Part shown: positions 1,497 to 18,889 of the stretch, in pieces
Layout: the number at the start of each line of letters is the position of its first letter
Numbering within the stretch: position 1 is the stretch's first letter
Source of the DNA: a virus
IMG/VR virus record: IMGVR_UViG_3300036770_001972
Coordinates: 1 to 64,000 of that record
Strand: one strand, 5' to 3'
Length of the DNA: 64,000 nt
Translations under genes and position numbers: made by a program
The notes under the pieces: generated by a model
Database searches by the model: none
What the model saw: only the letters and a program-made list of their open reading frames with translations
What the model was told of the DNA's origin: nothing

Positions 1497-1802
1497 ATGA
1501 ACGCCACCACCCAAACCTCCCCAGTACATTCCGTTCGCATGGTGGATCCATCGGTTGGATACATCGACTTCACATGGACGGATACCGTATCCTCCATGGA
1601 TCCGATGTTGGATGGGGTATTCATTTCTTTTCGTCCGATGCTCATGGAGAAGCCCTACTACTCCATCTCCATCTCCATCGGAAAAGACAAGTACAACTTT
1701 CATCTCATCTCCAATGAGGGGCGTACATTCAGGCGTGACGATGCCCGAGTTCTATGGGCTGCTATCACCATGGATGGTTGGCAAGTGAAGGAGCAGTTCT
1801 GA
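1497..1802 (+). CDS. ARxxW-family (DUF1651-like) protein 1
   Basis: C-terminal DARVLWAAITMDGW; start moved to ATG 1497. Confidence 0.7.
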   Translation: MNATTQTSPVHSVRMVDPSVGYIDFTWTDTVSSMDPMLDGVFISFRPMLMEKPYYSISISIGKDKYNFHLISNEGRTFRRDDARVLWAAITMDGWQVKEQF

Positions 1803-2098
1803 TGACCACCCCGAATATCATTCCAAAGACCGCGACTCTTCATAACTCCGTTGATCCTTCTCAACACATTCTTTTCATGTGGATTGGGGAATGGGGATTC
1901 GTGAAGACCATCTATCAGATGGGCCATCAGGGATGGGATTCCAATATCATCGTAAAGGTCTCAAACGGATTGTCCATGGATCTGTTCCACAGTCAGGCAT
2001 ACAACCTCAATGTGGAGGATGCACGGGCTGCATGGGCATACCTTGTCGATGAGTTGGGGTGGAAGACATGGGAGGAGAGTGAAAATGGAAACCGATGA
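1802..2098 (+). CDS. ARxxW-family protein 2
   Basis: DARAAWAYLVDELGW; TGATG coupling to the previous gene. Confidence 0.75.
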   Translation: MTTPNIIPKTATLHNSVDPSQHILFMWIGEWGFVKTIYQMGHQGWDSNIIVKVSNGLSMDLFHSQAYNLNVEDARAAWAYLVDELGWKTWEESENGNR

Positions 2099-2390
2099 GA
2101 TGGACATCCACAAGTGGGTGAGCGAGAATCGGATTCCAAACGATATCGATGTCCATGTGCTTCGAAACTTGGAGCATGGGGATGTCGGCTTCTTTCATTC
2201 CAAGATACGAAAGGGCGTTTGCATTCGTTTCTATCCGAGGAGCGGGTCAAGGCAGATCAAGATTCATGTCATGCCGTTGGGATGTGGGGGCAAGAGTTTT
2301 ATGTTGGGCGAAGGCGAGAACGAGTACTTCACCAAGGAGGATGCCCGAACGATATGGAATGAATTGGTTTGTTTGGGGTTCGTTCGATGA
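2085..2390 (+). CDS. ARxxW-family protein 3
   Basis: DARTIWNELVCLGF; ggagag SD upstream. Confidence 0.75.
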   Translation: METDEMDIHKWVSENRIPNDIDVHVLRNLEHGDVGFFHSKIRKGVCIRFYPRSGSRQIKIHVMPLGCGGKSFMLGEGENEYFTKEDARTIWNELVCLGFVR

Positions 2391-2827
2391 ACGGCGAGAC
2401 GGGAAGCAGTCCCTTGCCGTTCGATGTTTCTCATGACGAGGGTATGACTTCCCCCGCCGAGGTTGTCTGTCGGGTCTGCAACAAGTGCAAAAAGAGCAAA
2501 CCCTTGGACTGCTACTACAACGACAACGGGCGCAGGGACAAGTACAAGAAGCATCCCGTCTGCAAGGAGTGCGTGAAGGTGGGTGCCAATGTGGTGGCAC
2601 GGCTGAAGAAGACCGCCCCTGCCAAGCCGAGTGTCTGTGAGTGCTGCGGGAGGAATCCCGATGCCGACCCCGTCTGCCGAGGATGGTGCCTAGACCATGA
2701 CTATGCCACGCAGACCTTCCGAGGGTGGATCTGCCAAACTTGCAATATCGGACTTGGGCACTTTGGAGATTCGGTGGAGGGGCTGATGCGGGGAATCGAT
2801 TATTTACGCCGCACGGAAAAACCTTGA
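2387..2827 (+). CDS. endonuclease VII-like (HNH-type) nuclease with N-terminal Zn ribbon
   Basis: CxxC pairs and LDHDYATQTFRGWICQTCNIGLGHFGD, the EndoVII domain signature. Confidence 0.85.
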   Translation: MNGETGSSPLPFDVSHDEGMTSPAEVVCRVCNKCKKSKPLDCYYNDNGRRDKYKKHPVCKECVKVGANVVARLKKTAPAKPSVCECCGRNPDADPVCRGWCLDHDYATQTFRGWICQTCNIGLGHFGDSVEGLMRGIDYLRRTEKP

Positions 2828-2852
2828 CACCGTCCCATTTTTGGAGTATACT
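2824..2852 (+). promoter_or_regulatory. sigma70-type promoter, leaderless
   Basis: TTGACA-17-TATACT, ATG 6 nt after the -10. Confidence 0.8.
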
Positions 2853-2858
2853 CATAGT

Positions 2859-3113
2859 ATGGCAATCGTGAAGAAGATCTCCAATGATGTCCGCTCCCGT
2901 GCTTCCCTGCGGCACCCCGCCATCGGCACGGTGGAGTTCGGATGGGAAGATGAATGGGTTGTCGTGTGCTTCTATCCAATCAATCAGTCCATGCCCCTGT
3001 GGTCAGCGAACAAGTACACGCTGTTCGCCAATCGTCCCATGACCGTGGTGAAGGATGGCGCACGGCTGATATGGGATGATCTCGTCCTCAACCGTTGGGA
3101 GGATGTGCCATGA
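2859..3113 (+). CDS. ARxxW-family protein 4
   Basis: GTVEFGW and GARLIWDDLVLNRW. Confidence 0.75.
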   Translation: MAIVKKISNDVRSRASLRHPAIGTVEFGWEDEWVVVCFYPINQSMPLWSANKYTLFANRPMTVVKDGARLIWDDLVLNRWEDVP

Positions 3114-3397
3114 AGTGGGTGAACATCGGGGGTCGCGGATTCGATCCCATGGGTGAACCGACAGGTGAGCCATGGCTTGTCTTTTGGTATCTGCCCAAGC
3201 CCGAGCAGAGGGAGTATGTGTTGTTCTCTGCAAGCGGCAACATGAACCCCGTGGTACAGGGAACGGATGGCAATCCAATTTCCATCCCCATTCAGGCGCA
3301 TGAGAAGCGACACCTTCACATCGACCTTGCCCGAGCCTTGTGGGACTATGTGGTGGCGAACGGATGGACAGTCAAGGGAACAGGAGAAGAAAAATGA
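3110..3397 (+). CDS. ARxxW-family protein 5
   Basis: LARALWDYVVANGW; ATGA overlap. Confidence 0.75.
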   Translation: MKWVNIGGRGFDPMGEPTGEPWLVFWYLPKPEQREYVLFSASGNMNPVVQGTDGNPISIPIQAHEKRHLHIDLARALWDYVVANGWTVKGTGEEK

Positions 3398-3849
3398 GCA
3401 TCTACTACCCAACCTCAACCGTCTACGGCATCGGTCAGCAGTACGCATTCTCGCAGGATCAGGGATCGACCTACCTTGGCTACTCCTACGGCGATGCGCT
3501 CACCTTCACCCCGAGACTGTCCGTCACGAATCCGATCAGCGAATCGATCATCCCTCCGACTGCTGCGAACTATCCGATTTCACCGAATCCATTGTTCATG
3601 GGTTCTTTTGATGGATTTTGGATTCATAAGTTGTACTTGGGCGACACCTTGGTCGCTACGGTGCAGACCGTGAACCAAGACATGTTCATCCCCATTCAGC
3701 ATGATCGGGTCGAAAGCGTATCCATGGGATTCGTGACAGAGAGCATTCCCTACGATGGGCCTGTCCGTCCTCCCGTCCCCGCCCCGAGCGTACTCTTGGC
3801 AGTTGGTCTTGGGTTTGCGATCCTTTCCCGAAAGGGAACCCGCCGATAA
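3394..3849 (+). CDS. protein with PEP-CTERM-like (VPAP) C-terminal sorting signal
   Basis: VPAPSVLLAVGLGFAILSRKGTRR: motif, TM helix, basic tail; no clear signal peptide. Confidence 0.7.
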   Translation: MSIYYPTSTVYGIGQQYAFSQDQGSTYLGYSYGDALTFTPRLSVTNPISESIIPPTAANYPISPNPLFMGSFDGFWIHKLYLGDTLVATVQTVNQDMFIPIQHDRVESVSMGFVTESIPYDGPVRPPVPAPSVLLAVGLGFAILSRKGTRR

Positions 3850-3873
3850 CCCAAACACTTTTTTCGATTCCCC

Positions 3874-3902
3874 TTGACGAAACCCTCTTCGTAGGGTACT
3901 AT
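3874..3902 (+). promoter_or_regulatory. sigma70-type promoter, leaderless
   Basis: TTGACG-17-TACTAT, ATG 7 nt later. Confidence 0.75.
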
Positions 3903-3909
3903 TATTCAT

Positions 3910-4245
3910 ATGACGATCACCGCCACCGAGATCCGTCCCTACAAGACATCGTGGACAGACGAGCATGGCAAGGCGTTCTATGCCGACTCTGCGCGGCTTG
4001 GCAAGCGAGGTACGGGATGGGTGGAGTTCTCATGGTTTCCCGAGTTGAACGAGGTTCACTTTCGTTTCATCTCCGAGCCTGACTACCCCAACTACGACTA
4101 CCTTCTGCACATGATTCCCGAGGATGGAACCGTCACCGTGTATCGGAGCGTCCTGATCTCAAAGAAGCGATCCGTCGATACCATTCCGAAGGCGCGAGGA
4201 ATTTGGAATTCCTTGATTTGCGATGGATGGTCAACTCAGTACTAG
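3910..4245 (+). CDS. ARxxW-family protein 6
   Basis: GWVEFSW and KARGIWNSLICDGW. Confidence 0.8.
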   Translation: MTITATEIRPYKTSWTDEHGKAFYADSARLGKRGTGWVEFSWFPELNEVHFRFISEPDYPNYDYLLHMIPEDGTVTVYRSVLISKKRSVDTIPKARGIWNSLICDGWSTQY

Positions 4246-4255
4246 GAGACACACC

Positions 4256-4693
4256 ATGGAACAGAATCTCGACATCACCGAACGACTGACCCTCAAGCGT
4301 CCGTACTACACTCTCACTAGCGATGATCTTTCTGATGCTGCGGCAGAGATCATCGAACTCCGTCGAACCGTCCTGCGGCTTGAGGCTCAGTACGGCGTTC
4401 AGGCAAACAAAGCCGAGGAATTGGAGAAGAAGGTCGCCGTGCTTGACGAGGCGGTCGATTCCCTGATCGTGGAGCGCGACGAGGCATACAAGAGGATCGA
4501 CGCAATCAAGGAAGGCTACGAGGGCTGCTGCACCGCCTGTGAGCCTGTCGCCCTGCTGAATCGGCAGTTGCGGGAGGAGCGGGACTTGGCACGGCGTGAG
4601 GTCTGTCGATGGGAGGCGAAACACCTGTCGAAGACCGTAACCGAGTGCGCCCGTCTGAACGAATGGGATTGTTTCAAGGCGGAAACCAAGTGA
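4256..4693 (+). CDS. coiled-coil WDCF-family protein 1
   Basis: ERDLARREVC...EWDCFK; internal CCTAC; aggag SD. Confidence 0.8.
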   Translation: MEQNLDITERLTLKRPYYTLTSDDLSDAAAEIIELRRTVLRLEAQYGVQANKAEELEKKVAVLDEAVDSLIVERDEAYKRIDAIKEGYEGCCTACEPVALLNRQLREERDLARREVCRWEAKHLSKTVTECARLNEWDCFKAETK

Positions 4694-5181
4694 CCGAACG
4701 CAACAGCGAGAGTCAGCGGGAATTGGATTCATACCGAGCCTATGAAATGGCAAGGGACAACTCCATTCCCCTTGGCACCATCTTCAAGACCACGGGCGGC
4801 TACCGACAGGGTGTCGTGGACGCAAGGAACGCATACTCCAAGAAAGAGGATAAGAAAGTGATCAAGACGAAGTCCAAGAAGAAGACTGCCAAGAAGACCA
4901 AGACCACCCGCACCACCAAGATGGAGCGTCTGCGTATCGCAGCAGAGAAGAATCGTCCCATGGGTATTAGAGTTGTCTCAGAAGGACGATGCGAGGTGGA
5001 GATCACCACGCTTTACAACTCCACGATGCACAAGCGCATGGGTGGTGTTCGTGCGGACTATTTTGACACTTCCGAACCCGCTTCACCGACCGTCTACATG
5101 GATAACCCGCACCAGTTGCGAATCCTTGCCGAGGCTCTGAACAGGGCAGCGGATTGGATGGAGGAGGAGATCAAGTGCTAG
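4690..5181 (+). CDS. hypothetical protein with Lys/Thr-rich linker
   Basis: GTGA overlap; KTKSKKKTAKKTK tract. Confidence 0.7.
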   Translation: MTERNSESQRELDSYRAYEMARDNSIPLGTIFKTTGGYRQGVVDARNAYSKKEDKKVIKTKSKKKTAKKTKTTRTTKMERLRIAAEKNRPMGIRVVSEGRCEVEITTLYNSTMHKRMGGVRADYFDTSEPASPTVYMDNPHQLRILAEALNRAADWMEEEIKC

Positions 5182-5468
5182 ACCGCTACAAAACACCACG
5201 AACCGACATAGCCGCCATGCGAGGATTAATAGACAATGATTTTGATGGAGGATTGATGCCCGCAGAAGTTGTTTCCGCAAAATTTGCCCGTAAATTGGAG
5301 ATGGAGATCACCCAACTCCGCAAGGAGCGTGACGAGGCGAGGCGGATTGCTTGTGATAATGAGGCAAGGCACAACTCCATGATGTTTGACAGTCCGAAGC
5401 ATAGCGATCCCCGCGCAATCGCGGAGTCCCATGGCTGGGATTGCTTCAAACAGGAGGACGGCAAGTGA
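5175..5468 (+). CDS. coiled-coil WDCF-family protein 2
   Basis: TPRTD N-terminus; ERDEARRIAC...GWDCFK. Confidence 0.75.
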   Translation: MLDRYKTPRTDIAAMRGLIDNDFDGGLMPAEVVSAKFARKLEMEITQLRKERDEARRIACDNEARHNSMMFDSPKHSDPRAIAESHGWDCFKQEDGK

Positions 5469-5794
5469 ACACGGGCATGGAGTACGAGGACATCCTCATG
5501 CGTAACCAAGAGTTGATGGCAATCATCAACCGCTTGACCATTGAACGCGACGAACTTGTAACCAAAACTTACAAGTTGGAGAAAGAGCGCGATGATGCCC
5601 GAGAGCAGGAGGAGCGTTTCTCCGATGATGCCCTGCGCCTGATGCATGAACGCAACAATGCCCTACGAGAGCGCGATGAGGCGAGACAGAAGTTTTGCAA
5701 AATGATGTCAGATAACTCCCGCTTGGAATTCACAACTCCTCAATGGTTTGCTGAAGAAGAAGGTTGGGATTGCTATAAGAAGGAGGTTGAGTGA
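5465..5794 (+). CDS. coiled-coil WDCF-family protein 3
   Basis: repeated ERDE/ERDD; ERDEARQKFC...GWDCYK. Confidence 0.75.
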   Translation: MNTGMEYEDILMRNQELMAIINRLTIERDELVTKTYKLEKERDDAREQEERFSDDALRLMHERNNALRERDEARQKFCKMMSDNSRLEFTTPQWFAEEEGWDCYKKEVE

Positions 5795-6162
5795 TGGAAG
5801 TCACCATTGAAGACCAGTACGAACGGTGCTGCCGCGACCGCGATTCACTTGAGTCTATGATCGACTCGCTTCAGGAGGAGATTCGCAGACTGCGTTTTGA
5901 CCTGAACGGTGCAATGCGAGAACTGGAGCAAATCCGTCCAGTTGCCGACGAGCAATGGAACAGTTACAAGACCGCAGCGCGGCTACTCACGGAACGGGAT
6001 GAAGCCCGCAGGGAGATCTGCAATCGAACTTCCTACCCCGACAGGACTCCCGAGACCGAAGCCAAGATGCGGGGATGGGATTGCTTTCGTATAAACGGAA
6101 TTGTTGTTTCCAAAGAGAAGGCAGTCCCACCGAAGTTTGAACTTGGAGAGGATGACAAGTGA
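5794..6162 (+). CDS. coiled-coil WDCF-family protein 4
   Basis: ERDEARREIC...GWDCFR. Confidence 0.75.
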   Translation: MEVTIEDQYERCCRDRDSLESMIDSLQEEIRRLRFDLNGAMRELEQIRPVADEQWNSYKTAARLLTERDEARREICNRTSYPDRTPETEAKMRGWDCFRINGIVVSKEKAVPPKFELGEDDK

Positions 6163-6431
6163 ACAAGGAATTGATTGACCAAATCATCAAGGAGAACATG
6201 CCACCCGTTGTGCATGCCCCGTACAATTGGCAATCGATTGAGACGGCACCCAAGGACGGTCATCCCATCGACCTGTGGGTGACCTACTGCTGCTTCGGGC
6301 GAGAGCAGTCATACAGGGCTGCGAATGCTCATTGGTCGAAGCGGGAGAATGCATGGATGTATAGGTCGGGATACCCCATCGAAGAACAGGGTGCGAAGGT
6401 AACACATTGGATTCGGATAGGAAAGCCATGA
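6159..6431 (+). CDS. DUF551-like phage protein
   Basis: WQSIETAPKDG...VTHW pattern. Confidence 0.7.
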   Translation: MNKELIDQIIKENMPPVVHAPYNWQSIETAPKDGHPIDLWVTYCCFGREQSYRAANAHWSKRENAWMYRSGYPIEEQGAKVTHWIRIGKP

Positions 6432-6871
6432 ACCGAAAAGAAGTCGAAGAGGTCTCGTACAAGATTCGTGAGTTGACCAAACGCAGCGATCTGTTTACCC
6501 CCGAAGTCATTGAGACTCTTTCCGAGGCATACCATGTCATCGGTGAGTTGGAGCGGCGACTCATCAAAATGGAAACCGCACCGTTCATGTACTTCGTGAA
6601 GTATGACATGGTCAATCGATCCACGGACACATGGATGCGTGTCACGGACGAATTCATGGAAGACCAATATCGAATCCGTGAGCCGATCCTTGCCAATTTG
6701 GTAGCCGACGAGATTCGCAGAGTCCACGAAAAGATGGTTGTTTATGGGACTACCAAGGTTCCCCCGACTGATCGGGAGGTAGCCGTTCGCAAGTGGGCAT
6801 TGGAAAAACTCGCTGAGTTGGACGAGGCGAACGAAAACAACAGTCATTTCCGCAAGACGGACGGCGAGTAG
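6428..6871 (+). CDS. hypothetical protein
   Basis: ATGA overlap with the upstream gene. Confidence 0.7.
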   Translation: MNRKEVEEVSYKIRELTKRSDLFTPEVIETLSEAYHVIGELERRLIKMETAPFMYFVKYDMVNRSTDTWMRVTDEFMEDQYRIREPILANLVADEIRRVHEKMVVYGTTKVPPTDREVAVRKWALEKLAELDEANENNSHFRKTDGE

Positions 6872-6877
6872 CCGCCC

Positions 6878-6906
6878 TTGACAGATTCCCCATTCTTTGG
6901 TAGAGT
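6878..6906 (+). promoter_or_regulatory. sigma70-type promoter, leaderless
   Basis: TTGACA-17-TAGAGT, ATG 6 nt later. Confidence 0.7.
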
Positions 6907-6912
6907 ACTGAT

Positions 6913-7131
6913 ATGGATCACATTGTCTCCACAATCTCGTTGTCCAATCACCTGATCGCCCTCAACAACCTGTACACGGGAAGCGATTGGAAGACCGACC
7001 GTCACGCCCGTTCCTACCTCCGAACCATTCACAAGACTCTCGTCGGCATCGACCCGAACTCTTGGTATGTCAGCGATGAGGAGGAGGCTCTGATTGCCTT
7101 GGTTGGGGAAGACCTCAAGGAGTTTGTGTGA
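6913..7131 (+). CDS. hypothetical protein
   Basis: ORF directly after a promoter. Confidence 0.7.
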   Translation: MDHIVSTISLSNHLIALNNLYTGSDWKTDRHARSYLRTIHKTLVGIDPNSWYVSDEEEALIALVGEDLKEFV

Positions 7132-7460
7132 ACGCTGTCGCTTCGGCAACACCCCGCAGCGATTTGCTGTACTTCCCGATCCCGCCACACTTCACGGGGA
7201 TGAAGCAGATCTATGCCCTGATGGATTCCGCAGACAAGCAGTCTACGGTTGTCTTTGGCGTTGATCCAACGGATTCCAGTTGGATCTACATGACTCTTCA
7301 GTCATCGACCGATAGGCACCTTGCCTACAAGTGCGATGGGTGGAACAGAATCCTCCGAGTGAAGGACGGAACGAGTCGATTCCCTGCCTTTCAAGCCCGT
7401 GCCCTGTGGGAGGAACTGACGGTGAAGCGGGGATGGCAAGTGATTCCAAACCAAGGCTAA
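7128..7460 (+). CDS. ARxxW-family protein 7
   Basis: QARALWEELTVKRGW; aaggag SD. Confidence 0.75.
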   Translation: MNAVASATPRSDLLYFPIPPHFTGMKQIYALMDSADKQSTVVFGVDPTDSSWIYMTLQSSTDRHLAYKCDGWNRILRVKDGTSRFPAFQARALWEELTVKRGWQVIPNQG

Positions 7461-7463
7461 ATA
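7457..7463 (+). promoter_or_regulatory. T4-type late promoter
   Basis: CTAAATA 5 nt before ATG 7469. Confidence 0.6.
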
Positions 7464-7468
7464 CTACC

Positions 7469-7858
7469 ATGGGTCTGACACAAGTCTACAGAGGGGCAGG
7501 AACGGGCAGACCGTTCTTCAAGAAGTACGGCAAGGTCTTCTACGACCAAACCAACTTGGGTATCGCCCTATGCAATGTTCAGAACTCCAAGGTTTGGGCG
7601 GGTTCTGCGACTAGCAAGGCACTTCTCACAATCGTAGGCACAAAGGCATTCATGGGGGCATCGACCTCCACTTGCCTCTATAACTATCAGAAGGGCATCA
7701 TTTACAAGGGCGCAGGAACCGACGAGCCGCTGTACAAGTGGGTGGGCACGACCTTGTACCAAGGCGCAAGCACCGCAAAGGTAGTAATGAATTGGACGGG
7801 CAACCCGTTCAGCCTTGCCGATCTGTTTGCCGCCATCACTCTTCTCAAAACCCGATAA
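7469..7858 (+). CDS. beta-repeat protein (~18-aa YxGAxT repeats)
   Basis: VYRGAGTG / VWAGSATS / AFMGASTS / IYKGAGTD / LYQGASTA. Confidence 0.7.
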   Translation: MGLTQVYRGAGTGRPFFKKYGKVFYDQTNLGIALCNVQNSKVWAGSATSKALLTIVGTKAFMGASTSTCLYNYQKGIIYKGAGTDEPLYKWVGTTLYQGASTAKVVMNWTGNPFSLADLFAAITLLKTR

Positions 7859-7865
7859 GATAGGA

Positions 7866-7893
7866 TTGCATCTTTCGCTCAGGAGGTTATACT
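7866..7893 (+). promoter_or_regulatory. sigma70-type promoter
   Basis: TTGCAT-16-TATACT, ATG 6 nt later. Confidence 0.55.
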
Positions 7894-7899
7894 TTCTGA

Positions 7900-8124
7900 A
7901 TGCGAAAGATGGTTTCCAAGAAGACGCGACCGACCAAGGACAAGTACATGGAGCGGGCTGCATCTGCTGCCGTTCTCCTATGGGACTATGACGGCTACTA
8001 CGACCCCGTCACCAAGAAGGGCAACATCGTCGGTCTCGCTGAACTGATCGATGATGCATTCATGATTCTCAACGGCGGGGAGCATTGGGATGGCAGATCA
8101 TCCAAGAAGCGAACGCGAAAGTGA
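7900..8124 (+). CDS. hypothetical protein
   Basis: ORF after a promoter. Confidence 0.65.
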   Translation: MRKMVSKKTRPTKDKYMERAASAAVLLWDYDGYYDPVTKKGNIVGLAELIDDAFMILNGGEHWDGRSSKKRTRK

Positions 8125-8290
8125 TACGCTGAAACTGATCGAATGGTACTTGGATCGATTCGTGGGATCCACCGCCGAGCAGATCGTCATGCAGCGATGC
8201 TATGGAGAAATCCTGTCGCTGCGAAAGCGTTGTGAAGAACTAGAAAGGCAACTCAATGAGCGAGACAACCGAACCAACACCAACACCTAA
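8090..8290 (+). CDS. hypothetical protein
   Basis: fills the gap between neighbours; short coiled coil. Confidence 0.5.
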   Translation: MADHPRSERESDTLKLIEWYLDRFVGSTAEQIVMQRCYGEILSLRKRCEELERQLNERDNRTNTNT

Positions 8291-8777
8291 GATCGGAATG
8301 GATGCATTCATGGAAGCCATCCAAAAGAAGGACGAGCATGGCAAATCCCTCTCCGACTACATGCGCGAGTCCATGGATGAGTTCCGCAAGGAGTCCAACT
8401 CATTTTGGGATGGTCTCTCCTACGATGACAAGTTGAAGGCGTTCTTTGCCGTGTGCGAACGCATTCATCAAGGCGACATCAAGGATCGGGGTTCATATCG
8501 CCATGTCCTGTACCAAGTCTTCGGATTCGCACCTGATGCTTACTCGCTTGGCATGGAGTGCGGATACCTCGACATTCATAACTGCATCTATACCGAGGAG
8601 GATCGGAAGATGGAGGACGAGCGCAACCGCATCGCCAACTCCGTGATGGAGTCCGAGCAATTCATGTGGCTCATGGCGGGATCGAATCATGTCGAATCAC
8701 AACTTGAAGACCTTCGTCCCGCTTACATGGCATGGAAGGATGCGGGTGGGAAGAACATCTTCAAGAAGGAGCCATGA
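8256..8777 (+). CDS. hypothetical phage protein
   Basis: 173-aa ORF in operon context. Confidence 0.75.
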   Translation: MSETTEPTPTPKIGMDAFMEAIQKKDEHGKSLSDYMRESMDEFRKESNSFWDGLSYDDKLKAFFAVCERIHQGDIKDRGSYRHVLYQVFGFAPDAYSLGMECGYLDIHNCIYTEEDRKMEDERNRIANSVMESEQFMWLMAGSNHVESQLEDLRPAYMAWKDAGGKNIFKKEP

Positions 8778-11250: not shown

Positions 11251-11649
11251 ATGAACGGGTGGAAAGACTACTTCCTCGTAGGTAACAACCAATACGGTGC
11301 GCCGTATGTCGTTGTATTCCGTGTCAACGAAGGATGTGATGTGGTTGGCATCTATGGATACACGCGAATTCATCCAATGTCGTTCAATCGGGATCCCCGT
11401 GTTGCTCCTCTGCTCCCTTCTGCCTTGGGAATGATTGTCACTTCCCCAAGATTCAACGCGACGAAATTCGCGGCGCGAATCATTTGGCAGGACTTGCTGA
11501 ACTACAAGCAATACAACATGAAGGAGACTTCCTTTTCGGATCTCTATCCCAATCATGTGTTCGATCCAGTTGAGATTGCAAAGCACACTAGGGAGTTTAC
11601 GCGACCTGATCAGTACTTCGTCAACACCCAGTACGCTTTGGAAGCGTGA
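11251..11649 (+). CDS. ARxxW-family protein 8 (divergent)
   Basis: AARIIWQDLL; aggag SD. Confidence 0.7.
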   Translation: MNGWKDYFLVGNNQYGAPYVVVFRVNEGCDVVGIYGYTRIHPMSFNRDPRVAPLLPSALGMIVTSPRFNATKFAARIIWQDLLNYKQYNMKETSFSDLYPNHVFDPVEIAKHTREFTRPDQYFVNTQYALEA

Positions 11650-11656: not shown

Positions 11657-11674
11657 CTCCAAGAGGTATTTGTC

Positions 11675-12604
11675 ATGGGTAAAACGCTGCTCACAGGCGG
11701 TTGGGGTCTCGTCGGTTCCGAGATCCCCGATAGTGAACAATACAAGAGACCCCGACACGCAAGCATGGACTTGTGTGGTTCTTATGACACGGATGTCCGC
11801 GATGCGATGCATCAATACGACATCAGCGAGGTCATTCACCTTGCAGCCAAGGTCGGCGGGGTAAAGGGCAACAACGACAACATGATGTCCTACTTCATGG
11901 ACAACATGGTGATGAACACGAACATTCTTCGTGCTTGCTCTGAGTTGAAGTCCATCAAGAAGGCAACTTTCATGCTCTCCACCTGTGTCTTCCCTGCAAA
12001 GGTGACATATCCCGTGGACGAGTTGCAACTCCATAACGGCGAACCACACCACACCAACTATGGATATGCATATGCAAAGCGTATGCTTGAGGTTGGTGCG
12101 CGTACCCTTCGTCAAAACGGAAAGCAAGCGCGATGCATCATCCCGTGCAACATCTACGGGAAGAACGACAACTATGACATCGTCAACGGGCATGTGATCC
12201 CGAGCCTGATTCATAAGTGCTACCTTGCCAAGAAGAACGACACCGAACTGGTCGTTTGGGGTAGTGGCGATGCGGAGCGCGAGTTCATCTATGCCCCCGA
12301 TATCGCACGGGCGGTCGTGGAGATTCATAACGATGAGCGCAAGGACGATGGACTAGACCTGATGATCGTCTCGCCCAACATCTCGTACAAGATCCGCGAC
12401 ATCGTATTCATGATCGCAGACTGCTTCGACTTCACGGGAAAGATTGTGTTTGACATCACTAGTCCCGAGGGTATACTTCGCAAACCTACATCTGCCCATA
12501 AGTTCAGGAAGTTCTATCCGAACTTCAAGTTCACGGGCATTGAGCAGGGAATCGCAGAGACATGCAAATTCGTAGAGGAGAACTATGACAGCCTTCGCAA
12601 ATGA
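11675..12604 (+). CDS. fcl: GDP-L-fucose synthase
   Basis: TGGxGLVG, HLAAKVGG, LSTCVFP, YAYAK, HVIPSLI, WGSGxAxREFIY. Confidence 0.93.
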   Translation: MGKTLLTGGWGLVGSEIPDSEQYKRPRHASMDLCGSYDTDVRDAMHQYDISEVIHLAAKVGGVKGNNDNMMSYFMDNMVMNTNILRACSELKSIKKATFMLSTCVFPAKVTYPVDELQLHNGEPHHTNYGYAYAKRMLEVGARTLRQNGKQARCIIPCNIYGKNDNYDIVNGHVIPSLIHKCYLAKKNDTELVVWGSGDAEREFIYAPDIARAVVEIHNDERKDDGLDLMIVSPNISYKIRDIVFMIADCFDFTGKIVFDITSPEGILRKPTSAHKFRKFYPNFKFTGIEQGIAETCKFVEENYDSLRK

Positions 12605-13616
12605 GTGGAATGGAAAGACTGCCGTCATCACGGGAGTCAACGGACAGGACGGATCGTACCTAGCCGACATGCTTGTCGCCAAGGGCTACAAGGTGATCGG
12701 TCTCAAGCGTCGAACATCGACCATCACAACAAGTCGCATCGACCACCTGTACGACAACCCGTTGTTCAAGATGCATCACTATGACTTGCTTGATGGTGCT
12801 GCGGTGTCTCATATCATCTCGCAGTACAAGCCCGACGAGTTCTATAACTTGGCGGCACAGTCGCATGTCGCCGTGTCTTTCGAAATCCCCGAGTACACAT
12901 CGGACGGTATCGCGGGGGGCACACTCAAGATCCTTGAGGCTATTCGTAGTCTCAGCCCGACCACTCGCTTCTATCAGGCATCCTCATCCGAGATGTTTGG
13001 TGATAGCGATGATTACGATCCGAGCAGGGGTTATGACGAAGAGAGCCGCATGATGCCCGTCTCTCCGTATGCCGTGGCGAAGTTGCATGCTCATCATATG
13101 ACTCGCGTATATCGAAACGCATATGGTCTCCATGCATCGTCGGGCATTCTCTTCAACCATGAGAGTCCCCGCCGTGGCGAGACATTCGTGACCCGAAAGA
13201 TCACGATGGCGGCAGCGCGGATCAAGATGGGCTTGCAGAAGGAACTGCGTCTAGGCAACCTTGATGCCATGCGCGATTGGGGATTCGCGGGTGACTATGT
13301 CGAAGCCATGTGGCTCATGCTTCAGCAGCCCAAGGGAGATGACTATGTGATTGCCACTCAGCAGACACACAGCGTCCGAGAATTCCTTGACATCGTGTTC
13401 AAGGAGGCGGGGCTTGATTGGAAGGAGCATGTGGTTATCGACCCCAAATACTTCCGACCCAACGAGGTGCCGTTCCTCCTTGGCGACCCATCGAAGGCAA
13501 AGCGAGTCCTTGGTTGGGAGCCGAAGGTGAATATGAAACTTCTTGCAAAGATTATGTACAAAAGCGACCTTGCCGAGTTGACCAAACAGATGCAGGGCGG
13601 TATAGTACATGTGTGA
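12585..13616 (+). CDS. gmd: GDP-mannose 4,6-dehydratase
   Basis: ITGVNGQDGSYL, NLAAQSHV, YQASSSEMFG, SPYAVAK, NHESPRRGETFVTRKIT. Confidence 0.97.
   Translation: MTAFANEWNGKTAVITGVNGQDGSYLADMLVAKGYKVIGLKRRTSTITTSRIDHLYDNPLFKMHHYDLLDGAAVSHIISQYKPDEFYNLAAQSHVAVSFEIPEYTSDGIAGGTLKILEAIRSLSPTTRFYQASSSEMFGDSDDYDPSRGYDEESRMMPVSPYAVAKLHAHHMTRVYRNAYGLHASSGILFNHESPRRGETFVTRKITMAAARIKMGLQKELRLGNLDAMRDWGFAGDYVEAMWLMLQQPKGDDYVIATQQTHSVREFLDIVFKEAGLDWKEHVVIDPKYFRPNEVPFLLGDPSKAKRVLGWEPKVNMKLLAKIMYKSDLAELTKQMQGGIVHV
13578..13606 (+). promoter_or_regulatory. sigma70-type promoter inside the gmd 3' end
   Basis: TTGACC-17-TATAGT. Confidence 0.65.
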
Positions 13617-13688
13617 CGAAAGGGGTTCGCCCTTGCCGAAGTTCGCTGAGGCTAGTCACCGAGACCCCCACCTAGTGTGGGGGTTCTC
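13613..13688 (+). ncRNA. candidate structured small RNA or 5' leader
   Basis: gtgac/gtcac closing stem around two UUCG hairpins, then a GC hairpin; begins at the predicted TSS. Confidence 0.45.
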
Positions 13689-13703
13689 ATATAGGAGCAA
13701 ATC

Positions 13704-14054
13704 ATGACCCTACCATACGAACAGTACATTGCGATCACAAACACTCGCAACTTCCTGCTATCCCTCATGGATCCGCAGAAGACACCCAAGGCACCGAAGT
13801 ACCTCCGCATGGAGGCTCGTCGGCTACTCAAGCACTTCCCGAACGAGTACGAAGCCAACGACATGGTGAAGGCGCATACCGAAAGCACAAGCGGTGCCAC
13901 CGACAATCAGGTACGGGGCGATCCGATTGAGTACAGCCCTCGCTACGGTGGATGGATCTTTTGGGATGAGACTTGGACGCAGCCGAGCAAGGGGTTCCTT
14001 ACGCGGCGTGATGCAGAGGACGCTCTCAAGGCTTACTTGAAGACTCTTCTATGA
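13704..14054 (+). CDS. BPSL0761-like protein
   Basis: MTLPYE...TRNFL...PKAPKYLRMEARRLLKHFP. Confidence 0.7.
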   Translation: MTLPYEQYIAITNTRNFLLSLMDPQKTPKAPKYLRMEARRLLKHFPNEYEANDMVKAHTESTSGATDNQVRGDPIEYSPRYGGWIFWDETWTQPSKGFLTRRDAEDALKAYLKTLL

Positions 14055-14323
14055 AACCGATCCACATCGTTGATCGACTGACGGATACCCACCGAGCAAT
14101 CAAGGGTGGTATGGAAGAGATCGGACGGGTTCGTATTGCCGATCTTCTCAAGGAAGCAAGGGATCGAATCCACGAACTGGAAGGTGATGTCTATTCATAC
14201 CCTCCCTCCGAGCATGCACCCGAAGGCACAACATGGCGCAAGGAGTACGAGGACTTCTATGATGTCATGCTCAAGATGACCCCCGAGGAGTTTGTGGAAT
14301 GGCAGACGGCAATGAAGGACTGA
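14051..14323 (+). CDS. hypothetical protein
   Basis: ATGA overlap. Confidence 0.7.
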   Translation: MKPIHIVDRLTDTHRAIKGGMEEIGRVRIADLLKEARDRIHELEGDVYSYPPSEHAPEGTTWRKEYEDFYDVMLKMTPEEFVEWQTAMKD

Positions 14324-14688
14324 TTGAGTGTCCGTGCAATCTGTACGAACTGGCTAAGGAGATCTGTCTGCGAATCGACCGCCCGAAGAGGCATTGCAGC
14401 GTGATTCTTCATAAAGGTCGCGTTGTTGCCGTGGGGACGAACCAAATGAAGACCCATCCGCTTGCCCGTAAGTATGGATATCTTTTCGATGAGATGCATT
14501 CCGAATTGGATGCGTTTCGCAAGTGTGGAAACAAGCAGGGACTTGAACTTTGGAACTTTCGCTTCAACCGTTTTGGTCAGGAGCGGATTAGTCGCCCATG
14601 CACAAAGTGCCTTCCTTGGTGCGTGGAGGTGTTTGATCACATCTACTTTACAACGGGCGAGGGAATCGAAAGATTGCGTGTGAAATAA
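14299..14688 (+). CDS. zinc-dependent cytidine/dCMP deaminase-like protein
   Basis: HSE and SRPCTKC motifs (HxE...PCxxC). Confidence 0.8.
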   Translation: MADGNEGLIECPCNLYELAKEICLRIDRPKRHCSVILHKGRVVAVGTNQMKTHPLARKYGYLFDEMHSELDAFRKCGNKQGLELWNFRFNRFGQERISRPCTKCLPWCVEVFDHIYFTTGEGIERLRVK

Positions 14689-14729
14689 AGGCAATTTACG
14701 CCCAAGATGAGAATTTTTCATTCTTGGGG

Positions 14730-14736
14730 CTAAATA
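14730..14736 (+). promoter_or_regulatory. T4-type late promoter
   Basis: CTAAATA right after the hairpin at 14701-14728. Confidence 0.6.
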
Positions 14737-14802
14737 TGAACAGACCCGCATAGGTACAGCGGGAAACCCCAAATCGTTTCGAAACACGAAACAGGAGCAA
14801 GC

Positions 14803-15477
14803 ATGTCTGTCAGAGAGACTTGTGTGGCTACCGCACTTGCTGCGGCTTCTATCTGTGGTGCAGTCAACGCAGATTTCATCGTGGTCAACAATCCAGTTGT
14901 GGATACAGTTGGCTTCTACTCAGATGCATTCGATTCAAAGGGTGCATACTTCTACGCACAGAGTGGAGCGCAAGCATTCAGTCTTGAGGATTCCTATACC
15001 ACATCGTCGCTCAAGTGGTGGGGTTCGATGAACGGCTTCAACGATCAGGGAATCTCAAACATCGATTGCTTTCAGATCATCGTTTGGGATTCGAACTTTG
15101 AGTCCCAAGTGTTCAGTCAACGGATTGATTTGTCAAACATCACGATGACTGATACGGGCGACTTCAATTTCTTCGGTCAGCCTGTGTATGAGTTCTTCGT
15201 TCCGTTGGCGTTTCAGATCACGGCTGGCAACTATTTCATGAATATCGGCGCACAACTCAATGATGCGGCGGGAGATCAGTTCGTGTGGTCGCAGGGCGAG
15301 GATGTCGATGGCTTTTGGTATACCGATGCGAATGGACAGAACAAATGGGGCGATTGGCGACCCCTCCCAAACTTCATCGGGAATACCGCAGGAGGTGCAT
15401 TTGTCATGACTGCTCCTGCTCCTAGTGCGATTGCACTCTTGGGTTTGGCGGGTATCGTCGGTCGCCGCCGCCGCTGA
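14803..15477 (+). CDS. exported PEP-CTERM-like (PAP) protein
   Basis: signal peptide ending VNA-D; C-terminal APAPSAIALLGLAGIVGRRRR. Confidence 0.88.
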   Translation: MSVRETCVATALAAASICGAVNADFIVVNNPVVDTVGFYSDAFDSKGAYFYAQSGAQAFSLEDSYTTSSLKWWGSMNGFNDQGISNIDCFQIIVWDSNFESQVFSQRIDLSNITMTDTGDFNFFGQPVYEFFVPLAFQITAGNYFMNIGAQLNDAAGDQFVWSQGEDVDGFWYTDANGQNKWGDWRPLPNFIGNTAGGAFVMTAPAPSAIALLGLAGIVGRRRR

Positions 15478-15507
15478 GTCATAAGTGCATACAAATCAAG
15501 TAGAAAC

Positions 15508-15536
15508 GAACCCCTGTCGCAAGACGGGGGTTCTTT
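15508..15536 (+). terminator. intrinsic terminator
   Basis: gaacccctgtc-gcaa-gacgggggttc-ttt. Confidence 0.8.
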
Positions 15537-15537
15537 C

Positions 15538-15544
15538 ATAAATA
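15538..15544 (+). promoter_or_regulatory. T4-type late promoter
   Basis: ATAAATA immediately after the terminator. Confidence 0.55.
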
Positions 15545-15632
15545 GCCATACAACCAATGTGACCAAATTCTACCGCCACGGGCTGTGCATAGCACAATCC
15601 CGAGCGGCTTTTCATTGCCATAAGGAGGTTTT

Positions 15633-15836
15633 ATGGAACAGAAGTCAGGAACCAAGACCACCGAGTTTTGGGTAGCACTTGCTCCCGTGTTGATCGGACT
15701 GATCGAAGGACAGAAAGGTGACGCAGAGAACAGTCGTTACCTCATCGTCTGCGGTACGGCATTGGGATGCATGTATATCGCTAGCAGGACACTTTTAAAG
15801 TGGAATCCATCAAAAACAAAAGGAGGAGAACTATGA
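15633..15836 (+). CDS. small two-TM protein, holin-like
   Basis: KSGTKTTEFW plus two hydrophobic segments; strong aaggagg SD. Confidence 0.6.
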   Translation: MEQKSGTKTTEFWVALAPVLIGLIEGQKGDAENSRYLIVCGTALGCMYIASRTLLKWNPSKTKGGEL

Positions 15837-16594
15837 GAATCACGACAGCAATACTACTTGCTTTGGGAATTGCCGTATCCACACAAGCACAGACAGACCC
15901 AAATGCAAAGATCGACCTCACCATGATCGCACCGACGAGTGCTGTGGGTGTTAACGAGGAAATCGAAATACAGATTGTGGCTTCAGCACAGACTACACCA
16001 CAACGATACCTTGTCGCGGACATCGTCTTCGGTTGGAATCCAAGCGAACTTGAATTCATTGGTCTTTCCCATGTCGGTTCGCATCCGCTTCTATGGGTTC
16101 CCCCAAGCGGAATGCCATGTCCCTCTGGGTATCAGAACTGCGAGGGCATTGGTGGTGATTACACAGGAATCAACGAATCGATTCCGCCCACAGACGGCAA
16201 TGCCTTGTACTACGGATATGGAAAGTTAGGAAGCGTATGGATCATCGATGAACCCGTGCAGATAGTGAAATTGCGGTTCCGAGTCCTCACTTCGTTCTCT
16301 CAGAGCAATGTGTATTTCATACCCGAGATCAATATCAATGCCGAACAAAAGACCATCGTCTACGGCAGTTACATCCCTGGGCTTTCGACAACAGGTGTCT
16401 TGACGAATGCAACAGTTGTAGGGAGCATAAGAGAGGGCGATGTCGATGGGAACGGTGTGGTCAACTCCTCAGACTTGGCGCAGTTGATCGCTGCATGGGG
16501 ACAGACATCGTTCAAGGGAAACCCGTGCGACCTAAACGGTAACGGCGTGGTCGATTCTCCTGATTTGGGCATTCTGCTTGATAACTGGGGATAA
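15833..16594 (+). CDS. exported cohesin-like and dockerin-domain protein
   Basis: signal peptide (TQA-Q); beta-rich domain with GWNPSELEFIG; GDVDGNGVVNSSDL...DLNGNGVVDSPDLGILLDNWG. Confidence 0.8.
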   Translation: MRITTAILLALGIAVSTQAQTDPNAKIDLTMIAPTSAVGVNEEIEIQIVASAQTTPQRYLVADIVFGWNPSELEFIGLSHVGSHPLLWVPPSGMPCPSGYQNCEGIGGDYTGINESIPPTDGNALYYGYGKLGSVWIIDEPVQIVKLRFRVLTSFSQSNVYFIPEININAEQKTIVYGSYIPGLSTTGVLTNATVVGSIREGDVDGNGVVNSSDLAQLIAAWGQTSFKGNPCDLNGNGVVDSPDLGILLDNWG

Positions 16595-16640
16595 GTCCGA
16601 TAAGTACTTGATAAGCGGGGATTTGACACCCGCATGTGCG

Positions 16641-16677
16641 CCCCCTCCCATCTTCACAGGGAGGGGGTTGCTTTTTT
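16641..16677 (+). terminator. intrinsic terminator
   Basis: ccccctccc-9nt-gggaggggg then T6. Confidence 0.75.
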
Positions 16678-16689
16678 GGGGAATGGGGC

Positions 16690-16718
16690 TTGACAGGGGG
16701 GTAGACATACTGTATCTT
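16690..16718 (+). promoter_or_regulatory. sigma70-type promoter
   Basis: TTGACA-17-TATCTT with extended TG. Confidence 0.7.
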
Positions 16719-16738
16719 TCTTATGTGAAGGGAACCAT

Positions 16739-17431
16739 ATGACCACGAAGACCCCAACCTCCACCGTCTCTGAACGCGACCGCCGCCTAGCCGAGGTCAA
16801 GAACGGGATCCCAAAGAAGGCGCGTCAGATTGCCGCCGACGAGTTGGGTGCCCTCTACAACGCCGCCAAGAGCGAGGCTGAAGCCCTCTACGCCGCGTCC
16901 CGCCCCGAGCCAAAGGTCGGTCAGGTGCGGATGATCGTCAGGGGCAAAGGCGAAGGCAAGAGCGGCAAGATCGTTTGGGTCGGCAAGACGAAGTGGGGCA
17001 ACCGAATTGCCGTTGCGACAAGCGACGAGCGTCTACCGAACGGACGCTACCGCGATGTTGTCTACGCCCGTCCTGCATGGACAAAGACGGTCGATGCCGC
17101 CCGTGATGCCCGTCTCGCGGAACTGAACAAGATCCTCAGCAACTGCGACCGCAAGGCGATGGGGTCGATCTATGACCGCGAACTGCTGCGCCTCTACCGC
17201 GAGGCTGCTGCCGCATGGAATGTCACCGAAGCCGTCCTGTTCAAGCGCACCATCGAAGTGATGGAGGAAGAGATCGCTAGGCTCAAGGAGTATGACTCCC
17301 GCCTGTGCGAGAATCATTGGGCATGCGATGGCCCTGCATACGGTCAGGTTGAGCGTCAGAGCGAAGGCATCAACCGAGAGATCAACGACCTGAGCGAGAT
17401 CGTCGCTCTCCTGAAGAGCAAGACCGCCTGA
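16739..17431 (+). CDS. hypothetical protein with KOW-like motif
   Basis: KVGQVRMIVRGKGEGKSGKIV. Confidence 0.75.
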   Translation: MTTKTPTSTVSERDRRLAEVKNGIPKKARQIAADELGALYNAAKSEAEALYAASRPEPKVGQVRMIVRGKGEGKSGKIVWVGKTKWGNRIAVATSDERLPNGRYRDVVYARPAWTKTVDAARDARLAELNKILSNCDRKAMGSIYDRELLRLYREAAAAWNVTEAVLFKRTIEVMEEEIARLKEYDSRLCENHWACDGPAYGQVERQSEGINREINDLSEIVALLKSKTA

Positions 17432-17514
17432 TGCTTCACGACTACCTAACAACTTCCGATGAACGCAAGAAGATCGTTCTGTTGACGATCCTCGCGTACA
17501 TTGCGCTGCTTTGA
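17431..17514 (+). CDS. 27-aa hydrophobic peptide (not in the ORF track)
   Basis: MLHDYLTTSDERKKIVLLTILAYIALL; TGATG coupling; fills the gap exactly. Confidence 0.5.
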   Translation: MLHDYLTTSDERKKIVLLTILAYIALL

Positions 17515-17520
17515 TTTCCG

Positions 17521-18039
17521 ATGTCAACACCGAAACTGCACATCCTTACAACCACACATGGCGATGCTGTACTCATAGCGATTTACAACCCCGAGCGGGT
17601 ATGCATTCGCGGAGCAGAACGCAGCATGGGTCGCGCATGGGCTGATGGAACCTACAACGCCCAACAGGCTAGGTCGCTGTGGGATGCCATCATTGGTGAT
17701 GGCGGTGCGATCATCGACACCACTCTCCTGAACGCACTTCTTCCACAGATTGTCAGCGAGACCACCAAGGTTTTGGACTCGCAGATCGAATGGCTGAAGA
17801 CTGCTCTTGATACGAAGAGCAAGGAAGTGGAGCATGAGAGGGCGCAGCACGACAAGTCAAGAGAGCGATACGCAAAGAACGAAGCGCAACTTCAACAGGA
17901 ACTGCATCATGCTGTTGAAGAGTTCTATAGAAACCAAGATCACATTCAGTTTCTGAAGGGTGAACTTGGCGACTATATGAAAATCGCCTGTAAACACGAA
18001 ACTGCCGATTACGGCGATGGTGGGTTTGTCGATGAATGA
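17521..18039 (+). CDS. ARxxW-family protein 9 with C-terminal coiled coil
   Basis: QARSLWDAIIGDG. Confidence 0.7.
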   Translation: MSTPKLHILTTTHGDAVLIAIYNPERVCIRGAERSMGRAWADGTYNAQQARSLWDAIIGDGGAIIDTTLLNALLPQIVSETTKVLDSQIEWLKTALDTKSKEVEHERAQHDKSRERYAKNEAQLQQELHHAVEEFYRNQDHIQFLKGELGDYMKIACKHETADYGDGGFVDE

Positions 18040-18337
18040 TTACACCGATACTGGCCCTTGGGTTCTTCGATGGGATCGTCACCCGACGAAGAGAGTCATG
18101 TTTGAAAAAGACTTCAGCGGCGGTAAGCCGTTTATCAAGATTTCAGGCACAGGCTTCCAAGGCTTGGACGATCCCCCTCCGCGTCTTGTCATTCCGCACA
18201 CATCCCTTGGTGATTGGTCTATCGACCTGAACAACGATGACAGTTGCTACCTGATCGGTATTGAATTTGCCCGTGAGATTTGGCAGCGTATGCTAGACAT
18301 GGGTTGGATTCAGATCGATTACACTTCCCCCATCTGA
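18032..18337 (+). CDS. ARxxW-family protein 10
   Basis: FAREIWQRMLDMGW. Confidence 0.75.
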   Translation: MNDYTDTGPWVLRWDRHPTKRVMFEKDFSGGKPFIKISGTGFQGLDDPPPRLVIPHTSLGDWSIDLNNDDSCYLIGIEFAREIWQRMLDMGWIQIDYTSPI

Positions 18338-18339
18338 TC

Positions 18340-18588
18340 ATGAGTCACTTCTACGCACAAATCGTTGAATCGTCCCGCAAGACTGTTCCTACCGCGAGGG
18401 GGCACAAGTCAACTGGCATTCAAACTCTTACACAGTCATACAACGGACAGATTCGTGTCCGCATGTGGCACGACCCCAAGACCAACGAGGACAAGTATGA
18501 GGTCATCCTTCAGCCGCATGGCTACAAGGAATCCGATGGCGGCATCGTCCTCGCAACAGGGGTTATTTCGGACGATAACGCCCCTTGA
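18340..18588 (+). CDS. hypothetical phage protein
   Basis: MSHFYA...TARGHKSTGI. Confidence 0.7.
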   Translation: MSHFYAQIVESSRKTVPTARGHKSTGIQTLTQSYNGQIRVRMWHDPKTNEDKYEVILQPHGYKESDGGIVLATGVISDDNAP

Positions 18589-18629
18589 TTATCGGACGCA
18601 GTAATTCCTCCCCGAACTGGAATAGTGGC

Positions 18630-18657
18630 TTGACTTTTCCTCGGAGTTTGGTATTCT
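18630..18657 (+). promoter_or_regulatory. sigma70-type promoter
   Basis: TTGACT-16-TATTCT. Confidence 0.6.
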
Positions 18658-18679
18658 TTAGATGTAGGAGGTAACCACC

Positions 18680-18889
18680 ATGACCAACGACCTTTACACC
18701 CTGACGAACGAGCGAGAAGGTACTCGCTACGAGTTCAAGCGGGGAACTGGTGATGTTTGGGGTGGCATGTACCTAGTCACCCGTGTTTGGCTTGCCGATA
18801 ACGAGCGAGAGTACATGGGTGCCTATGACAAGAGTGCCGCCCGTAAGTATTGGGACAGTCTCGTCGCCAGCGGCTTCGTGAAGGCTTGA
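18680..18889 (+). CDS. ARxxW-family protein 11 (minimal form)
   Basis: AARKYWDSLVASGF; aggagg SD. Confidence 0.8.
   Translation: MTNDLYTLTNEREGTRYEFKRGTGDVWGGMYLVTRVWLADNEREYMGAYDKSAARKYWDSLVASGFVKA

Follow-up and report, generated by a model that had tools for sequence, protein, structure and literature searches.

The first 64 kb of the IMG/VR virus record IMGVR_UViG_3300036770_001972 (positions 1 to 64,000, hereafter the window) carries eleven small open reading frames (ORFs) whose predicted products share a short helical motif near the C-terminus. The whole record is 102,228 bp long with a CheckV completeness of 57% and represents an uncultured freshwater T4-like myovirus. From about 20 kb on, its minus strand encodes portal, major capsid, scaffold, sheath, large terminase, head-completion and baseplate proteins, and UvsW, gp46/47-like, class II ribonucleotide reductase and collagen-like genes are found in the same record outside the window. 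The eleven ORFs lie upstream of the structural genes, on the plus strand between 1 and 19 kb. A reading of the letters alone, below called the sequence-only reading, had pointed out the shared motif, and each of its eleven ORFs was indeed found on the plus strand with A-R-x-x-W-x-x-[LIVM]. Our results revealed a single small alpha+beta domain, about 70-100 residues long, in all of them; they are ancient paralogs that have diverged strongly, nine of them solid members and two (11251 and 17521; members are named here by their start positions) marginal ones. Profile comparisons place them as a divergent phage-borne branch of the DUF1651 superfamily, which is otherwise known from marine and freshwater picocyanobacteria. 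The members are as follows.

1497..1802, plus strand: paralog 1, 101 residues; helix ARVLWAAITMDGW; strand motif GYIDFTW
1802..2098, plus strand: paralog 2, 98 residues; helix ARAAWAYLVDELGW; start overlapping the stop of paralog 1 (TGATG)
2085..2390, plus strand: paralog 3, 101 residues; helix ARTIWNELVCLGF; 14-nucleotide overlap with paralog 2
2859..3113, plus strand: paralog 4, 84 residues; helix ARLIWDDLVLNRW with a degenerate end; strand motif GTVEFGW
3110..3397, plus strand: paralog 5, 95 residues; helix ARALWDYVVANGW; ATGA overlap with paralog 4
3910..4245, plus strand: paralog 6, 111 residues; helix ARGIWNSLICDGW; strand motif GWVEFSW
7128..7460, plus strand: paralog 7, 110 residues, with a GTG start; helix ARALWEELTVKRGW
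11251..11649, plus strand: marginal member, 132 residues; helix ARIIWQDLLNYKQY, followed by 44 more residues
17521..18039, plus strand: marginal member, 172 residues; a short N-terminal domain with ARSLWDAIIGDGG, then about 110 residues that look like a coiled coil
18032..18337, plus strand: paralog 10, 101 residues; helix AREIWQRMLDMGW; 8-nucleotide overlap with the preceding gene
18680..18889, plus strand: paralog 11, 69 residues, the shortest form; helix ARKYWDSLVASGF

The full motif, with its G-[WF] ending, is present in eight of the eleven, and the ending is degenerate in 2859 (NRW), 11251 (KQY) and 17521 (DGG), as had been said of three members. To estimate chance, the residues of the 1974 six-frame ORFs in the 102-kb contig were shuffled. 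The strict pattern occurred 8 times against a mean of 0.01 in the shuffled ORFs, the loose pattern 12 times against 0.11 and the bare core 13 times against 2.3, so the motif stands far above background frequency. The loose pattern was absent from 726 kb of 80 other T4-like phage loci and contigs and recurred only in a strain with 94-96% identity (L081). Its twelfth match in the contig, at 21647 on the plus strand, was rejected as chance because it lies antisense within a protease-like gene (20558-22009, minus strand) and scores only 5-8 bits with the family profiles. When the remaining genome was scanned, a hidden Markov model (HMM) of the family found no additional member between 19 and 102 kb of the contig, and none was found in four other large T4-like records of 70-174 kb. 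A second string, G-x-[VI]-[ED]-F-x-W, occurs in exactly three ORFs (1497, 2859 and 3910), in agreement with the sequence-only reading, and many members have a hydrophobic F-x-W strand at the corresponding place. The proteins are mostly acidic to neutral, with isoelectric points of 4.7-6.5, and two are at 7.8-8.9.

Membership of one family was supported by profiles from inside and outside the window. In leave-one-out HMMs, each omitted member ranked first among the 1974 ORFs, seven with an expectation (E) value of at most 1.2e-4 and four with values of 0.013-0.19. A profile search of 1.84 billion representative sequences returned orthologues of most members, and also non-orthologous relatives (among P0025-P0034), two of which (P0027 and P0033) contain two domains in tandem. 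Orthologues were assigned to 1497 (P0005-P0008 and P0025), 1802 (P0021), 2859 (P0023 and P0029), 3910 (P0026), 7128 (P0024 and P0032) and 18032 (five diverged ones, P0011-P0015). When an HMM (A2) was built from these metagenomic proteins, with no window protein in it, the eleven window ORFs were its top eleven matches. They included 2085, 1802, 18680 and 17521, none of which has an orthologue in A2. For example, A2 found 2859 with an E value of 1.3e-10 and 1802 with 0.0011, and it found 2085 (1.4e-8) and 18680 (0.0021) even though their own orthologues are absent from it. Other resources were silent: PHROGs gave weak and unrelated matches only, the ESM Atlas had neither a usable match nor a model for the 1497 protein, and none of 50,697 GenBank phage records searched by tblastn matched the 3110 protein, P0012 or either of two cyanobacterial DUF1651 proteins. 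Searches for related loci found none in viral contigs with the 3110 protein, P0031 or P0025, and none in metagenome contigs with P0052.

The likeness to DUF1651, which the sequence-only reading had pointed to, was borne out by searches in both directions. Against Pfam PF07864, only 3110 passed the gathering score of 22, with 24.5 bits over residues 17-87 of the protein and positions 7-68 of the 74-position profile. Of the 30 ESM Atlas feature matches of this protein, 27 were DUF1651 clusters, and 7 of 15 metagenomic relatives matched DUF1651 at an E value of at most 1. An HMM of 22 picocyanobacterial DUF1651 proteins, searched against the 1974 ORFs, had family members as its top eight matches (E 2e-5 to 0.6). 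Among them were 3910 (rank 2, E 0.0019), 18032 (rank 3, 0.0038), 7128 (rank 4, 0.018), 1497 (rank 5, 0.022), 2085 (rank 6), 2859 (rank 7) and 1802 (rank 8). Further down came 18680 (rank 13, 2.9) and 17521 (rank 15, 3.4), and 11251 was not found. In the other direction, phage profiles built with or without the 3110 group matched DUF1651 loci in four to five of five whole picocyanobacterial genomes, with E values down to 1e-5 and a coverage of up to positions 17-94 of 97. Furthermore, an hhalign comparison of the phage profile without the 3110 group to cyanobacterial DUF1651 gave a probability of 94.5% (E 7.7e-8).

The phage and host proteins agree in several traits. Both are small single-domain proteins (about 75-105 residues in DUF1651) whose C-terminal helix, A-x-x-x-W-x-x-L-x-x-x-G-W, leads into a short strand; in the cyanobacterial alignment (A5) the Ala and the Trp of G-W are invariant. 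Several copies per genome are also found on the host side. Of 151 cyanobacterial genomes sampled, the Pfam model found DUF1651 in 8, which are all 1.6-2.7 Mb in size and hold 1-7 copies apiece; it found none in 61 genomes of another cyanobacterial order (which contains a metagenome-assembled 'Synechococcus' genome). Examples of DUF1651 proteins are SYNW1658, SYNW2106, SYNW1944, PMM0684 and PMM0819 (names from PMC5490813). There are also clear differences. An Arg directly after the motif Ala is invariant in the phage branch (39 of 39 sequences) and present in only 7 of the 22 cyanobacterial proteins. The host N-terminal motifs G-W-L..., R-F-x-x-D-x-K-S and P-x-L-K-x-R are not recognisable in the phage alignment, where the hydrophobic F-x-W strand is found instead. 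The phage copies are clustered and co-oriented, whereas the host genes are scattered singletons. No recurrent partner was seen by Pfam on 95 neighbours of the cyanobacterial genes (TPR three times, SRAP twice, DNA ligase twice). As a separate observation, the picocyanobacterial loci L166-L195 have a gene for an SOS-response-associated peptidase (SRAP) within 1.5 kb in 2 of 30 cases, and a DNA ligase gene, also within 1.5 kb, in 2 of 30.

Structure prediction pointed to one scaffold, as the sequence-only reading had proposed. The AlphaFold 2 models of 3110 (mean predicted local distance difference test score, pLDDT, 84.5; predicted template modelling score, pTM, 0.73) and 1497 (pLDDT 83.6, pTM 0.74) have the same topology, with six strands, the motif helix and a final strand that starts at G-W; in 1497 the helix spans residues 80-92 and the last strand residues 96-100. 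In the models, the domain consists of a curved antiparallel sheet of about six strands, an amphipathic helix that packs against this sheet, and a last strand; the shared string covers the helix and runs into the beginning of the last strand. A Foldseek search against the PDB and BFVD returned nothing at an E value of at most 0.001, and by sequence profile the PDB held no solved DUF1651 structure, only chance helix matches (3k7x and 9i38). Structural neighbours were then taken from VIA-align against 48,161 chains, where a Z score below 8 may mean only a common arrangement. Those common to both models were 2een, 2fjt, 2dc4, 7z67, Med18/20 and residues 1-71 of 2ra8_A. The best were CYTH/triphosphate tunnel metalloenzymes (2een, 2fjt, 2dc4 and 7z67) and Mediator Med18/Med20 (2hzm, 5n9j and 7emf), with Z scores of 5.6-7.1, 61-74 aligned residues, a root-mean-square deviation of 2.3-5.7 Å and 3-14% identity. 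They share with the phage domain a curved antiparallel sheet bearing a helix. However, CYTH proteins form an eight-stranded tunnel, and the phage domain, with 6-7 strands in 70-100 residues, is about half of their size: the best CYTH scores (Z 6.2-7.1) cover about half of the CYTH chain, and the N-terminal E-x-E-x-K of CYTH is found in no phage member. A comparison with WGR domains (PF05406) gave a weak likeness in fold and none in sequence. Both have a small antiparallel sheet with a packed helix, but the WGR domains of PARP1/PARP3 (2cr9, 2eoc, 7s68 and 4dqy) scored Z 4.1-4.5 with the 1497 model and 3.7 with the 3110 model, much too low to tell kinship from a common arrangement. The WGR profile had no match in the contig at an E value of at most 10, and the tripeptide W-G-R is in no member. 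Residues 1-71 of 2ra8_A scored Z 5.7-6.0, and their identity as a WGR domain could not be confirmed. In our reading, what these neighbours have in common with the predicted domain is an arrangement, a curved sheet with a helix on it, and not kinship.

The genes form short, translationally coupled runs on the plus strand, with overlapping stops and starts in 1497/1802/2085, 2859/3110 and 17521/18032, and some of the runs stand behind promoter-like sites of the sigma-70 type. The sites in front of members, and a gene inside the array that is not a member, are as follows.

2824..2852, plus strand: promoter-like site, TTGACA-17-TATACT, its -10 element ending 6 nucleotides before the ATG of paralog 4
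3874..3902, plus strand: promoter-like site, TTGACG-17-TACTAT, 7 nucleotides before the ATG of paralog 6
18630..18657, plus strand: promoter-like site, TTGACT-16-TATTCT, then a GGAGG ribosome-binding site, ahead of paralog 11
2369..2827, plus strand: Cys-rich ORF inside the array, not a family member; endonuclease VII/HNH-like by eye, with no NCBIfam match

It had been claimed that four paralogs are the first gene after a sigma-70 promoter. This applies to 2859, 3910 and 18680; 7128 is the second gene behind a promoter-like site at 6878-6906, and no such site was found ahead of 1497. By analogy with T4, we read the plus-strand region upstream of the structural genes as an early region. As to the sites themselves, TTGAC[AG]-N17-TAnnnT with a start codon 6-7 nucleotides past the -10 element occurs four times in the window (2824-2861, 3874-3912, 6878-6915 and 18886-18923). 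A fifth such site lies on the minus strand at position 89372 of the contig, making 5 in the contig against about 0.3 expected by a rough hand estimate. These close-start sites suggest leaderless early mRNAs, since there is no room for a ribosome-binding site between the -10 element and the start codon; in the window the predicted leaderless starts are 2859, 3910, 6913 and 18921.

Comparison with related DNA showed that the region is hypervariable among related lake phages. One study's subsurface or soil runs, which may be where the record comes from, contain near-identical or related DNA, and such DNA is also present in part in lake and freshwater metagenomes from many studies. An 8.6-kb mosaic contig of the lake type (L196) encodes proteins 85-97% identical to the window genes at 7.3-11.9 kb, but in its left part six family members are only 32-47% identical to their window counterparts, their order is changed, and one additional member has no counterpart in the window. 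In three lake studies, contig variants have 26 letters in place of 2804-3864, which removes ORFs 2859 and 3110 and the next ORF; the gene order in the variants of this segment is 2085, 2859, the Cys-rich ORF and 3910. The Cys-rich ORF follows the 2859 gene in lake-metagenome contigs and does not precede it (joints 2398>2813 and 3109>2387), and this moved position is as expected of a mobile nuclease gene, which the ORF may be. Because of the divergence and reordering in L196 and the loss and reordering of cassettes in the lake contigs, the array is placed in a fast-changing accessory region. The strain L081 differs elsewhere in the region: it has an extra 1.5 kb at window 19580-19648, and it has 24 bp in place of 14670-16581, a segment with a PEP-CTERM-like ORF, a small membrane-like ORF and an ORF with dockerin repeats (15800-16594).

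Taken together, the explanation that we consider best overall, and that we hold to be probable, is that the eleven ORFs are diverged paralogs of a DUF1651 branch, with the helix as the core of the fold, and act as early binders with variable surfaces. Our best guess is that the copies may bind host factors, as small proteins expressed early in which the core is constant and the surface varies. Each copy would be a small, mostly acidic protein made early, whose variable sheet and loop surface would bind a different host or phage macromolecule, and the copies would act in host takeover or counter-defence. The sheet strands and loops have drifted past recognition while the helix core was retained, and the Arg of the phage branch may provide a shared contact or a structural salt bridge.

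Several points weigh against this explanation. The leave-one-out test is partly circular because the members were chosen by the motif, and leave-one-out HMMs on the N-terminal parts alone gave zero signal, as the sequence-only reading had anticipated in calling these parts highly divergent. Most of the sequence evidence for common descent therefore comes from the C-terminal 25-55 residues. Two members, 11251 and 17521, are weak ones, scoring about 10-11 bits once their own orthologues are omitted, and the Pfam matches of 17521 are weak ones of the coiled-coil type. Ten of the eleven members fail the Pfam cut-off for DUF1651, with no match even at an E value of 10, and the hhalign match to the cyanobacterial family is only 24 columns long. 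The structure predictions cover the phage members 3110 and 1497 and no cyanobacterial DUF1651 protein, the two runs used overlapping family alignments, so that their agreement is not fully independent, and all structural neighbours have Z scores below 8. The burial of the helix is argued from its periodicity. Finally, the timing is inferred from promoter-like strings, which show no overall enrichment (17 against 13.4 +/- 3.3).

The weakness of the N-terminal signal and the short hhalign match are what would be expected if there were no common descent, that is, if unrelated small proteins had come to carry the same C-terminal helix by convergence or module exchange. We regard this as very improbable, since the strand order is identical in both models, profile matches to cyanobacterial DUF1651 extend over 55-78 positions, the hydrophobic F-x-W strand stands at the same place in many members and the domain length is similar in all of them. 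If the descent is common, it has to be asked why the helix was kept. The sequence-only reading took it for a constant docking element, and in its fullest form this explanation says that the helix, especially its Arg and Trp, plugs all paralogs into one hub (a host enzyme, RNA polymerase or a phage complex), while the N-terminal part gives specificity. The helix is the sole part conserved across all copies, and the Arg at its position 2 is invariant in the phage branch. Because most host DUF1651 proteins do without this Arg, the fold as such does not require it, and it may serve a function. However, in the 39 phage-branch sequences the conserved positions are hydrophobic or small, namely 1 (A), 4 (I/L), 5 (W), 8 (L), 9 (V/I) and 12 (G), and positions 3, 6, 7, 10 and 11 are polar and variable. 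The conserved spacing i, i+3, i+4, i+7, i+8, i+11 marks one face of an amphipathic helix. Apart from the Arg, conservation thus follows a hydrophobic stripe, and the outward positions vary, so the helix is most likely the core of the fold and not a docking tag. The conserved residues being mostly a buried stripe, the motif would have been kept because it holds the fold together. In addition, the strand after the helix joins the sheet in both models, and cellular DUF1651 is characterised by this same helix. The helix is near the C-terminus, as had been described, but it is not always terminal: 44-110 residues follow it in 11251 and 17521, and it is internal in the two-domain relatives as well. 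We therefore find a common docking site unlikely; the invariant Arg could be the one shared contact.

A different origin of the array would be host mimicry, in which a phage of a picocyanobacterium captured a host DUF1651 gene of the stress or infection response and amplified it, the copies now replacing, boosting or competing with the infection-induced host proteins. Picocyanobacteria are expected to be common in lakes, and relatives of the phage are found in lake metagenomes. Among the 151 cyanobacterial genomes the cellular family was found in picocyanobacteria only; the phage profile had no match in 242 genomes of Planctomycetota (121) and Verrucomicrobiota (121). Furthermore, DUF1651 genes are among the few host genes induced when marine Synechococcus and Prochlorococcus are infected; cyanophages induced them in three strains, and the SYNW1659/1658 operon, which holds one of them, alters cyanophage yield (PMC5490813). 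On the other hand, psbA and hli were not found in the 102-kb contig, which is 57% complete. The GDP-mannose 4,6-dehydratase of the phage is 55-60% identical to homologues of Verrucomicrobiota, Planctomycetota and Omnitrophota, with no close cellular donor, and its major capsid protein stands at the same distance (about 60-63% identity) from the capsid proteins of myophages of Pelagibacter, Methylophilales and Synechococcus. The invariant Arg and the N-terminal motifs also set the phage branch apart from host DUF1651, so that any capture was not recent. For these reasons mimicry appears to us quite unlikely, and diverged binders built on a DUF1651-type core are preferred.

DUF1651 is a known Pfam family, and to our knowledge neither its function nor its structure is known. 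As far as our checks go, an up to eleven-fold phage expansion of a distinct branch is unreported: the searchable literature on phage-borne DUF1651 contained a single case, in a coliphage, and no expansion, and the tblastn search of GenBank phage records had found none. The expanded phage-encoded branch links DUF1651 to the phage side of the conflict. A bolder proposal is that the Arg-marked branch might serve freshwater and marine T4-like phages as a scaffold dedicated to diversifying binders, in which a single stable mini-fold was copied up to eleven times per genome and every copy was turned to another host factor, of defence or of housekeeping; the branch would also be tied mechanistically to the infection-induced host proteins, for example through the same partners; we put this forward tentatively, as doubtful rather than expected. 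If true, it would give a first function to a family that marks the picocyanobacterial phage response. The array itself offers many natural variants of one mini-fold, which are useful for structural, pull-down and toxicity or defence-escape work. More generally, when proteins that look unrelated share a terminal motif, this motif can be all that remains visible of a common fold.

Several other features were noted around the array. A megablast of positions 1-20000 gave no match, and an NCBIfam search of eight neighbouring ORFs gave zero matches. Two plus-strand ORFs, 3340-3849 and 14803-15477, end in a PEP-CTERM-like tail of (V/A)PAPS, a hydrophobic stretch and then basic residues; neither had an NCBIfam match, and 3340-3849 has no obvious signal peptide. 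The GDP-mannose 4,6-dehydratase gene overlaps an epimerase/reductase-like gene (11675-13616, plus strand). At 711-950 on the plus strand lies a 79-residue ORF of nearly all Asp and Glu runs, which could be a DNA mimic or an acidic decoy. Just ahead of the first paralog, 1293-1496 is a C-rich, ORF-poor stretch of about 200 nucleotides with repeated CCCCACC-like strings, where lake contigs deviate from the window (joint 1449>1519). A second paralog family is found at 4223-6162 on the plus strand, with four near-tandem coiled-coil ORFs (4223, 5154, 5441 and 5791), each of which terminates in ...RDEAR..C....GWDC[FY]; in lake contigs this region shows many joints and length variants.

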